From a virus (taxonomy: Duplodnaviria; Heunggongvirae; Uroviricota; Caudoviricetes): a DNA stretch of 5,538 nt. Made by a program: the position numbers and the translations under genes. Shown here one piece after another: positions 4,921 through 5,403 of this stretch; position 1 is the first letter of the stretch, and every line of letters starts with the position of its first letter. Where the stretch lies: IMG/VR virus record IMGVR_UViG_2663763220_000007, one strand, 5' to 3'. The notes beneath the pieces are model-generated. The model did not search any database and was not told where the DNA came from. It worked only from the letters and a program-made list of their open reading frames with translations.

Positions 4921-5403
4921 GTGATAAAGCCATTTTTAATGACGGTTGCAATATTAACCTCTTGCTGTGCTCAGGCGAAAATACTAACAAATGAGGAGAT
5001 TGTTTCACGATTTATTAGTAACGTTAAAACATCTGCAGATAATGACGTTGACTTGGATACAGATGGATTCAGACAACTGAGGATATCGTGCCCATCCCCT
5101 TCTGCCAGCGGTGCGATTATATTGAGAAAAGCTTCTTATGAATTCGGCAAAAGTATAGGTGTATTTGATTTTGCAAACAATGCATCACCAGCGACGATGA
5201 CATTTTTGATCCCAATATATAAAGATGATGATTTTGATTCAGATACTGTTGGTTTTACATTTGCGTTCAAGATGCCAAGAGGCCAGTTTTTTGTAGATGT
5301 AAAAGAAAACGGGAATATCAGAGCTGGAGTTAATGTTAATGGCGAGTCGGGAGTGACCTACGAAAATTGCAAATTGAATATGAAAGATATTAATGATGAT
5401 TAA
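4921..5403 (+). CDS. hypothetical exported protein / putative lipoprotein, low-GC cargo gene of unknown function
   Basis: 160-aa ORF from GTG at 4921 (alternative ATG at 4939), with GGAG at 4909-4912 8 nt upstream. N-terminus MIKPFLMTVAILTSCCAQAK has a hydrophobic core, a lipobox-like LTSC (Cys15) and an AQA motif that could be a signal peptidase I site. G+C is about 36% in a hand count of 4921-5040 (43/120), versus well above 50% in the tail genes. Followed by an intrinsic terminator. Confidence 0.6.
   Translation: MIKPFLMTVAILTSCCAQAKILTNEEIVSRFISNVKTSADNDVDLDTDGFRQLRISCPSPSASGAIILRKASYEFGKSIGVFDFANNASPATMTFLIPIYKDDDFDSDTVGFTFAFKMPRGQFFVDVKENGNIRAGVNVNGESGVTYENCKLNMKDINDD

Follow-up and report, generated by a model that had tools for sequence, protein, structure and literature searches.

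A probable moron-type gene in the tail module of a Shigella flexneri prophage remnant encodes a predicted exported beta-barrel protein

The virus record IMGVR_UViG_2663763220_000007 is a stretch of 5,538 nucleotides (the whole of which is called the window below) that holds, on its plus strand at positions 4921-5403, an open reading frame (ORF) situated between a phage tape-measure gene and a gene resembling gp43/N of phage Mu. The window corresponds to the tail module of a phage in which a lambda/HK97-like head is combined with a contractile tail of the Mu kind; it belongs to a prophage of the P27/SfV type and is a remnant from Shigella flexneri that has been eroded by the insertion sequences (IS) IS600 and IS1. 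Comparison of the ORF with its relatives indicates that it is probably a genuine accessory gene of the 'moron' type, carried by a P27/SfV-like temperate myovirus, and not a component of the tail. On balance, the gene is best regarded as dispensable mobile cargo, whose product is active either in the periplasm or at the outer membrane. It falls into a known category, that of phage accessory envelope genes, and belongs to a small family that has already been catalogued and is better described here.

A low-GC cassette between two tail genes

The ORF forms the centre of a low-GC cassette, composed of a Shine-Dalgarno leader, a 160-codon gene with a GTG start and an intrinsic terminator, which lies between the tape-measure and gp43/N-like genes. 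A previous reading of the window, made from the sequence only and without database searches, had placed the gene among phage tail genes, and this placement is supported. In phage phiP27, which lacks the cassette, just 15 nt separate the stop codon of the tape-measure gene from the start of the gp43/N-like gene. Similarity to phiP27 (blast) breaks off 9 nt before the tape-measure stop codon, leaving ~600 bp (4845-5449) that are extra with respect to phiP27. The ORF has a GC content of 36.9%, versus 52.6% and 55.1% for its two flanks, and the same contrast (36-37% in the ORF, 52-55% in the flanks) recurs in every tail-slot relative, four other tail-slot lineages having been checked. Likewise, a hairpin followed by a run of T is found directly 3' of the stop codon in every other lineage of the family, although the hairpin sequences are unrelated to one another.

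Occupancy of the slot was surveyed in IMG/VR loci retrieved via the gp43/N-like protein, 29 of which hold both flanks. No insert was present in 20 of the 29, while seven held an intact ORF, one an ORF split by IS1, and one a different gene. Since phiP27 and about two thirds of the related viral contigs are without the cassette, we take the gene to be dispensable cargo. Furthermore, in loci L024 and L032 the ORF is 95.6% identical, whereas the C-terminus of the tape-measure protein beside it is just 47% identical, which shows that recombination of the cassette is independent of its neighbour.

Extra DNA relative to collinear relatives, a deviant GC content and a terminator of its own are features that the cassette shares with morons (defined in Juhala 2000, summarised in PMC3594210), and the cassette's own transcription unit ends at the terminator. 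By contrast, the gene does not look like one for a structural or assembly protein of the tail: it is missing from phiP27 and from most relatives, and its product carries an export signal. Together with the occurrence of homologues outside tail modules, these properties argue against a structural role in the tail.

Other occupants of the slot were also encountered. In one P27-like contig (L014, 1920-2375), it is filled by an unrelated ORF of 151 amino acids with a canonical lipobox, LAGC, and an Asp at position +2 of the lipobox, which predicts retention at the inner membrane; this ORF had no match in Pfam or among the PHROGs. Because of this second lipobox-containing ORF, the slot seems to be a place where genes for exported proteins of the envelope accumulate. 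In a metagenomic contig (L007, 2387-2974), the tape-measure gene is separated from a distant member of the family by a gene for a HIRAN-domain protein of 195 amino acids, a second accessory gene in the slot.

Gene call and conservation of the product

The frame starts with GTG, ends with TAA and encodes 160 amino acids, and its start is preceded, 8 nt upstream, by a GGAG Shine-Dalgarno sequence. An identical start was called by the Prokaryotic Genome Annotation Pipeline (PGAP) of RefSeq on a 100% identical copy, WP_000594909.1, which is named 'hypothetical protein', and a homologue of 50% identity has an ATG at the codon that aligns with the GTG. On account of this aligned ATG the GTG is preferred over the internal Met7 (4939), which was rejected as an alternative start also for want of a charged n-region and of a hydrophobic core of sufficient length. 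The exact protein is present on at least 1000 contigs, where it is always labelled 'hypothetical' or 'phage protein'. Homologues with identities as low as 24-38% retain the length, the signal peptide, both cysteines of the mature domain and several motifs, showing that the ORF is more than a chance frame. Start codon, Shine-Dalgarno sequence, RefSeq call and conserved homologues all agree that the ORF is genuine and as described in the sequence-only reading.

The protein begins with MIKPFLMTVAILTSCCAQAK and contains four cysteines, at residues 15, 16, 57 and 150. Its mature part (residues 20-160) is an acidic domain of ~15.5 kDa with an isoelectric point of 4.6, in which 21 Asp and Glu are set against 15 Lys and Arg, Asp making up 10.6% and Asn 8.5% of residues. 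The acidic patches to which attention had been drawn before are all present at verified positions, namely DNDVDLDTD at residues 40-48 (one residue before a 41-49 reading), KDDDFDSD at residues 101-108 and KDINDD at residues 155-160. As marks of the family, however, they do not all stand: only the DDDF-x-S-D loop, between strands 4 and 5 of the model described below, is semi-conserved family-wide, while the DNDVDLDTD patch sits in a segment that is missing from distant relatives.

Signal peptide and processing routes

The sequence-only reading had proposed an exported protein whose N-terminus could be processed in two ways. Both elements of that proposal are supported here, in that a Sec signal peptide is predicted for the ORF protein and for every full-length relative, and the N-terminus fits the sequence rules for lipoproteins as well as those for signal peptidase I. 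The lipoprotein pattern of PROSITE, PS51257, reads {DERK}(6)-[LIVMFWSTAG](2)-[LIVMFYSTAGCQ]-[AGS]-C, with the side rules that the Cys is at positions 15-35 and that a Lys or Arg occurs within the first 7 residues. Residues 5-15 (FLMTVAILTSC) match this pattern, Lys3 is present, and Cys15 is at the lowest permitted position; LTSC itself corresponds to residues 12-15, and the lipobox consensus used was [LVI][ASTVI][GAS]C. Signal peptidase I calls for a small residue at both -3 and -1 and for a +1 residue other than Pro, and the succession of MIK, PFLMTVAILTSCC and AQA/K (the slash marking the cleavage site), with AQA at residues 17-19, agrees with this.

Comparison across the family adds that these two routes are not equally widespread. 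The n-h-c Sec signal peptides of the full-length relatives all finish with xxA/K or, once, with xxA/G, and their sites (SFA/K, ALA/K, VFA/K, VSA/K, ALA/K, AMA/K and ANA/G) align without gaps with AQA/K. Relatives of 50% identity or less have no cysteine at the lipobox position, and the lipobox is limited to the E. coli/Shigella alleles, where LTSCC is retained in all six of those examined (93-100% identity), and to a Yersinia homologue (LISCC). These alignments show that cleavage by signal peptidase I is the general mode of the family, and probably the ancestral one, and that the lipobox was probably gained recently in the branch comprising Shigella, E. coli and Yersinia.

For the Shigella protein itself, we lean slightly towards lipidation on Cys15 and sorting to the inner face of the outer membrane, as predicted from the motif. 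Under the Lol sorting rule, a +2 residue other than Asp leads to the outer membrane, and this localisation is predicted for the lipidated form because the residue at +2 is Cys and not Asp. If the protein were not lipidated, a soluble periplasmic protein starting at Lys20 would be released. It is quite possible that the Shigella allele is processed in this second manner, like the rest of the family, with a cut after AQA19, the two cysteines of the signal peptide being incidental residues of its hydrophobic core. In keeping with this, AQA/K aligns column by column with the xxA/K of all cysteine-free relatives, and a peptidase I site is kept in all alleles as either AQA or VQA. In addition, Cys15 is the minimum position under the PROSITE rule, and in the structural model a lipid anchor on Cys15 would leave only ~8 residues before the first helix. 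Conversely, the fit of LTSC to both the lipobox consensus and PS51257, and the conservation of the lipobox in the E. coli/Shigella as well as the Yersinia branch, speak for lipidation, as does the general observation that a usable lipobox in E. coli normally directs processing by Lgt and LspA.

A separate observation concerns the Yersinia enterocolitica homologue (74% identity; L006, 5975-6030), in which the frame of an upstream ATG (MKKPIYLCL) is offset by one base from that of the annotated start (MMLISCC...), as would follow from the loss of 1 nt within the signal peptide, either in a real pseudogene or through a sequencing error.

Predicted fold and conserved cysteine pair

The mature domain alone was modelled with AlphaFold from nine sequences; a model that included the signal peptide and five sequences was unusable (predicted local distance difference test, pLDDT, of 49). 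In the mature-domain model (pLDDT 85.7; predicted template modelling score, pTM, 0.82), a helix at mature residues 5-22 is followed by eight beta-strands, and the fold is confidently predicted to be an N-terminal helix with an eight-stranded antiparallel beta-barrel. Fold-match scores were 7.0 for Treponema Tp0751, 6.5 for a type VI secretion immunity protein, ~6 for avidins and 5.9-6.1 for PliC and PhiA, and Foldseek searches of the PDB and BFVD returned nothing below E=1e-3. The class of the modelled fold is thus clear, but no specific relative emerges. Profile-profile and structure-similarity searches, which had been suggested together with the sequence-only reading, gave no match that identifies a function. 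The best profile match in the PDB, to a Calx-beta domain on the acidic loop, was dismissed because it was not significant (E=0.08), had no support from Pfam and implied a beta-sandwich, whereas the fold of the model matches barrels.

In the model, Cys57 comes directly after strand 1 and Cys150 lies within strand 8. The mature parts of all relatives checked have exactly two cysteines, and the earlier suggestion of a possible disulfide between these residues gains weight from the fact that both are conserved family-wide and compatible with a bond. Since the first and last strands adjoin in a closed up-and-down barrel, a Cys57-Cys150 disulfide that would tie the first strand to the last is likely. 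Such a bond would imply that the protein folds and acts in the oxidising periplasm, and the periplasm is, judging from the model, the most likely place in which it works.

A small family in Enterobacterales phages

The sequence-only reading had recognised no named family, and library searches were in line with this, as the sole match was a full-length one to PHROG 5586 (E=9.7e-89), a group with no assigned function; full-length membership of this group shows only that the family had been catalogued before. Pfam, NCBIfam and PADLOC gave no match to the ORF protein (PADLOC up to E<=10), and no known exclusion or defence family was matched among the annotated PHROGs or the PADLOC models. A word-indexed search of 5.8 billion proteins returned 9 clusters, and 18 proteins emerged when 1.84 billion representatives were searched exhaustively with a HMMER profile. 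Of three long repeat proteins among these 18, the one that was read, P0017, proved to be a low-complexity repeat protein and was set aside as spurious; P0018 and P0020 show the same multi-stretch match pattern. A scan of 185,579 species-representative genomes yielded two true loci only. Three Firmicutes matches (L045, L046 and L047) look spurious; L046, the only one of the three that was read, appears to be a chance KSDYEFGKS match within a 449-amino-acid cytoplasmic protein resembling an rRNA methyltransferase. The family is thus small and confined to phages of Enterobacterales. A literature search brought up nothing about WP_000594909 and nothing about cargo genes in the tape-measure/gp43 slot.

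Members at 74%, 50%, 38% and 34% identity share the slot between the tape-measure and gp43/N-like genes, while members at 24-28% identity are found in phage-plasmids, where they adjoin genes for partition, toxin-antitoxin and cI-like repressor functions. The two phage-plasmid homologues (L005, ~2870-2918, and L051, ~690-739) have in common an AT-rich stretch just 5' of the gene, which contains the partly palindromic sequence TAAATAAATATTTAAT (palindrome AAATATTT). The tail-slot copies have no counterpart of this stretch, which may be a promoter or an operator.

Expression and candidate functions

Morons of the classical definition also have their own promoter and are expressed from the repressed prophage. 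A sigma-70 consensus scan of positions 4600-5538 gave 0 sites, versus 3.0 expected from shuffled sequences, and the best candidate in a manual promoter search of positions 4845-4920 had only 3/6 and 4/6 hexamer matches. The gene could be transcribed from the late operon under Q antitermination or from an unrecognised promoter.

Among the closest analogues is gp15 of HK97, the original 'moron' (Juhala 2000; Cumby 2012) and a superinfection-exclusion protein (PMC3594210). Both genes are extras in the tail operon beside the tape-measure gene, with deviant GC and a terminator of their own; both are missing from close relatives, and both products are envelope-bound. They differ in that HK97 gp15, a member of the YebO family, is small and sits in the inner membrane, its promoter and its expression from the prophage having been demonstrated, whereas the ORF protein is unrelated in sequence and is predicted to be a Sec-cleaved periplasmic or lipid-anchored beta-barrel. 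The gp15 gene also precedes the tape-measure gene, whereas the ORF follows it. Further points of comparison are the outer-membrane lipoproteins Cor (of phi80, N15 and HK022), Llp (T5) and Bor (lambda), through which other phages are excluded or serum resistance is conferred. They are likewise borne by phages or prophages, have a lipobox and act at the envelope, the kind of role considered in the sequence-only reading. These proteins are of 60-100 amino acids and have the lipobox family-wide, in contrast to the ORF family, in which it occurs in one branch only, and none of the three families matched the ORF protein in PHROGs or PADLOC.

Superinfection exclusion, receptor masking and a virulence-associated role, all raised in the sequence-only reading, are speculative, with superinfection exclusion or protection of the envelope as the best guess. 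Most likely, the protein would serve the lysogen or the infected cell at its envelope, where it would bind or block a partner with a periplasmic activity. Foremost among the candidate mechanisms would be interference with superinfecting phages, by blocking penetration of the tail or entry of the DNA; the second would be inhibition of an enzyme or toxin acting in the periplasm, and the third a role late in the phage's own infection. Superinfection exclusion is the most likely of these roles, favoured because of the analogy with tail-region morons such as HK97 gp15, and is put forward tentatively. A more elaborate proposal, which we consider rather doubtful, is that the family would be a novel type of factor that works in the periplasm to exclude superinfecting phages or to protect the envelope. 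In that case, a disulfide-closed beta-barrel, encoded behind the tape-measure gene in phages with Mu-type contractile tails and beside the immunity region in phage-plasmids, would intercept the tail tip, the tape-measure protein or a periplasm-acting enzyme, and the gain of a lipobox would have retargeted one branch from the soluble periplasm to the outer membrane.

Several results weigh against an exported moron with a role in the lysogen's envelope. No match by sequence, profile or fold indicates a function, and no sigma-70-like promoter was seen upstream of the gene, by a simple consensus test, either here or in L002, L048 and L050. The position behind the tape-measure gene is kept across relatives that are only 34-38% identical, a pattern that would also fit a lytic-cycle role. 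As regards processing, the PROSITE rule would admit no Cys any earlier than Cys15, and most of the family lacks a lipobox, so that the candidate lipidated cysteine is not a conserved residue. The disulfide, for its part, is proposed from conservation and strand order.

Some of these points would be explained if the protein acted in the lytic cycle, for instance as a late factor that masks receptors or the envelope and so spares progeny virions from cell debris, and were not a lysogenic-conversion factor. The ORF would then be co-transcribed with the tail genes, and it does lie inside the late tail operon in the same orientation, with no promoter of its own detected in four lineages and with the same slot filled in the distant relatives just mentioned. 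Such a role is nevertheless unlikely, given that the ORF is missing from phiP27 and about two thirds of related loci, that a terminator follows the gene in every lineage, that the phage-plasmid homologues adjoin repressor and partition genes and not late genes, and that in Shigella the gene has stayed intact although the prophage around it is dead, as recorded on at least 1000 contigs.

It is less likely still that the gene is a mere passenger of a decaying prophage and is no longer functional in this genome. The window is indeed a remnant between IS600 and IS1 that has lost its baseplate and fibre genes, one further contig has IS1 inside the ORF itself, and in the Yersinia copy the signal peptide seems to be frameshifted by 1 nt. 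The ratio of non-synonymous to synonymous substitution rates (dN/dS) among close alleles is 0.26-0.71, a figure that very few changes underlie. In opposition to this, at least 1000 contigs carry an unbroken, identical copy of the frame, and protein-level conservation within the family reaches down to members of 24% identity.

The least probable of the alternatives is a periplasmic inhibitor of peptidoglycan hydrolases, similar to PliC/MliC, that would guard the cell from host lysozyme or from the tail lysozymes of incoming phages. PliC and MliC proteins are periplasmic barrels that, like the family described here, occur in soluble and lipoprotein forms, and in the sequence of MliC a Cys is found close to either end of the domain, which mirrors Cys57 and Cys150. 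A weak match in BFVD (E=0.055) also pointed to a protein of Serratia phage Moabite annotated as 'putative lysozyme inhibitor'. However, hhalign against an alignment of MliC/PliC found nothing (probability 0.06%), and none of 14 family members matched the Pfam MliC model at E<=1. The ORF protein has no sequence or profile similarity to PliC/MliC (PF09864), has an extra N-terminal helix and is ~40 residues longer, and the PliC/MliC active-site motifs do not align with it. Even the common tetrapeptide 'SASG' is placed differently, after strand 1 here and in the second half of the domain in MliC. Because avidins, GID4, MoaF-like barrels and designed barrels score equally well or better, the similarity to MliC is at the level of a common fold. 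Membership of the MliC/PliC family was rejected on the hhalign and Pfam results, a similar mode of action being a possibility.

The prophage remnant

The features of the window are collected in Table 1. The chromosome of Shigella flexneri SFBU1023 (L043) is 99.98% identical to the window, including the IS1 junction, and the junction between the gp43/N-like gene and IS1 is also found in a genome labelled E. coli ECMA0423 (L044). When positions 6560-12480 of the SFBU1023 locus are compared with the corresponding locus of E. coli FDAARGOS_944 (L001), ~8 kb of baseplate and tail-fibre genes prove to be deleted between IS1 and a copy of IS600. The remnant resumes just 5' of an ipaH effector gene, and both the ORF and ipaH are kept. 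With its baseplate and fibre genes deleted, the prophage is therefore dead, though the ORF is intact.

Table 1 Features of the 5,538-nucleotide window.
Feature	Position	Strand	Basis or remark
IS600 (IS3-family) end	1-~55		phiP27 similarity starts at base 56
Truncated tail-terminator gene	42-398		Covers C-terminal part only of the Pfam model; cut by IS600
DUF2635-like ORF	408-569		Named by position, matching the DUF2635 gene in L001
Sheath gene	566-2128		Contains a run of N
Tube gene	2128-2484
Tail chaperone gene	2484-2819
Tape-measure gene, upstream neighbour	2904..4853	+	Pfam PhageMin_Tail, E=1.4e-44; 97% identity to phiP27 tape-measure gene
Left junction and leader of cassette	4845..4920	+	phiP27 similarity stops at 4844; GGAG at 4909-4912
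Predicted signal peptide, residues 1-19	4921..4977	+	n-region MIK, hydrophobic core PFLMTVAIL; rule checks and alignment
Lipobox LTSC	4954-4965	+	Cys15 codon 4963-4965
Signal peptidase I site AQA	4969-4977	+	Cleavage before Lys20
Mature domain, residues 20-160, and stop	4978..5403	+	Motifs DDDFDSD loop (conserved), MPRGQFFVDV, AGVNxxGESG; predicted helix and eight-stranded beta-barrel
Intrinsic terminator	5409..5437	+	Hairpin 5409-5431 (AAGCCGCCAG-AAA-TTGGCGGTTT), then T-run; terminator scan
Mu gp43/N-like 'DNA circularization' gene, first 10 codons	5450..5480	+	Cut by IS1; intact copies annotated in E. coli
IS1 terminal inverted repeat and element end	5481..5538	.	Matches IS1-family ends in thousands of E. 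coli records

Other signs of erosion were noted in this and related prophages. The sheath gene of the window contains 104 N at positions 1197-1300, where the matching Shigella genome has only 38 bases; either the masked stretch does not preserve the length, or the source differs at that point. In E. coli FDAARGOS_944, whose ORF is 100% identical, two copies of ISEc60 (9290-10480 and 15003-16193 of the locus) break the portal and sheath genes and several further genes are frameshifted, representing an independent decay of the same type of phage. In the viral contig L010 (2195-3454), IS1 splits the ORF, and the remaining frame corresponds to residues 35-160.

Discussion

Three features of this gene stand out: the slot is kept across deep divergence, the switch in processing is limited to one branch, and the gene is intact within a dead Shigella prophage. 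An intact gene fixed beside ipaH in such a prophage of Shigella flexneri makes a role in Shigella biology conceivable, if unsupported. The division between signal peptidase I sites and a lipobox within one family offers a tidy natural case for compartment switching of exported proteins. If the protein does block the entry of phages or a periplasmic toxin, it would represent a structurally new and very small family among the envelope defences encoded by prophages. The junction between the tape-measure gene and gp43 of P27/SfV-type phages would then be a cargo slot, as is also indicated by the second, unrelated lipoprotein gene that fills the same position in another contig.

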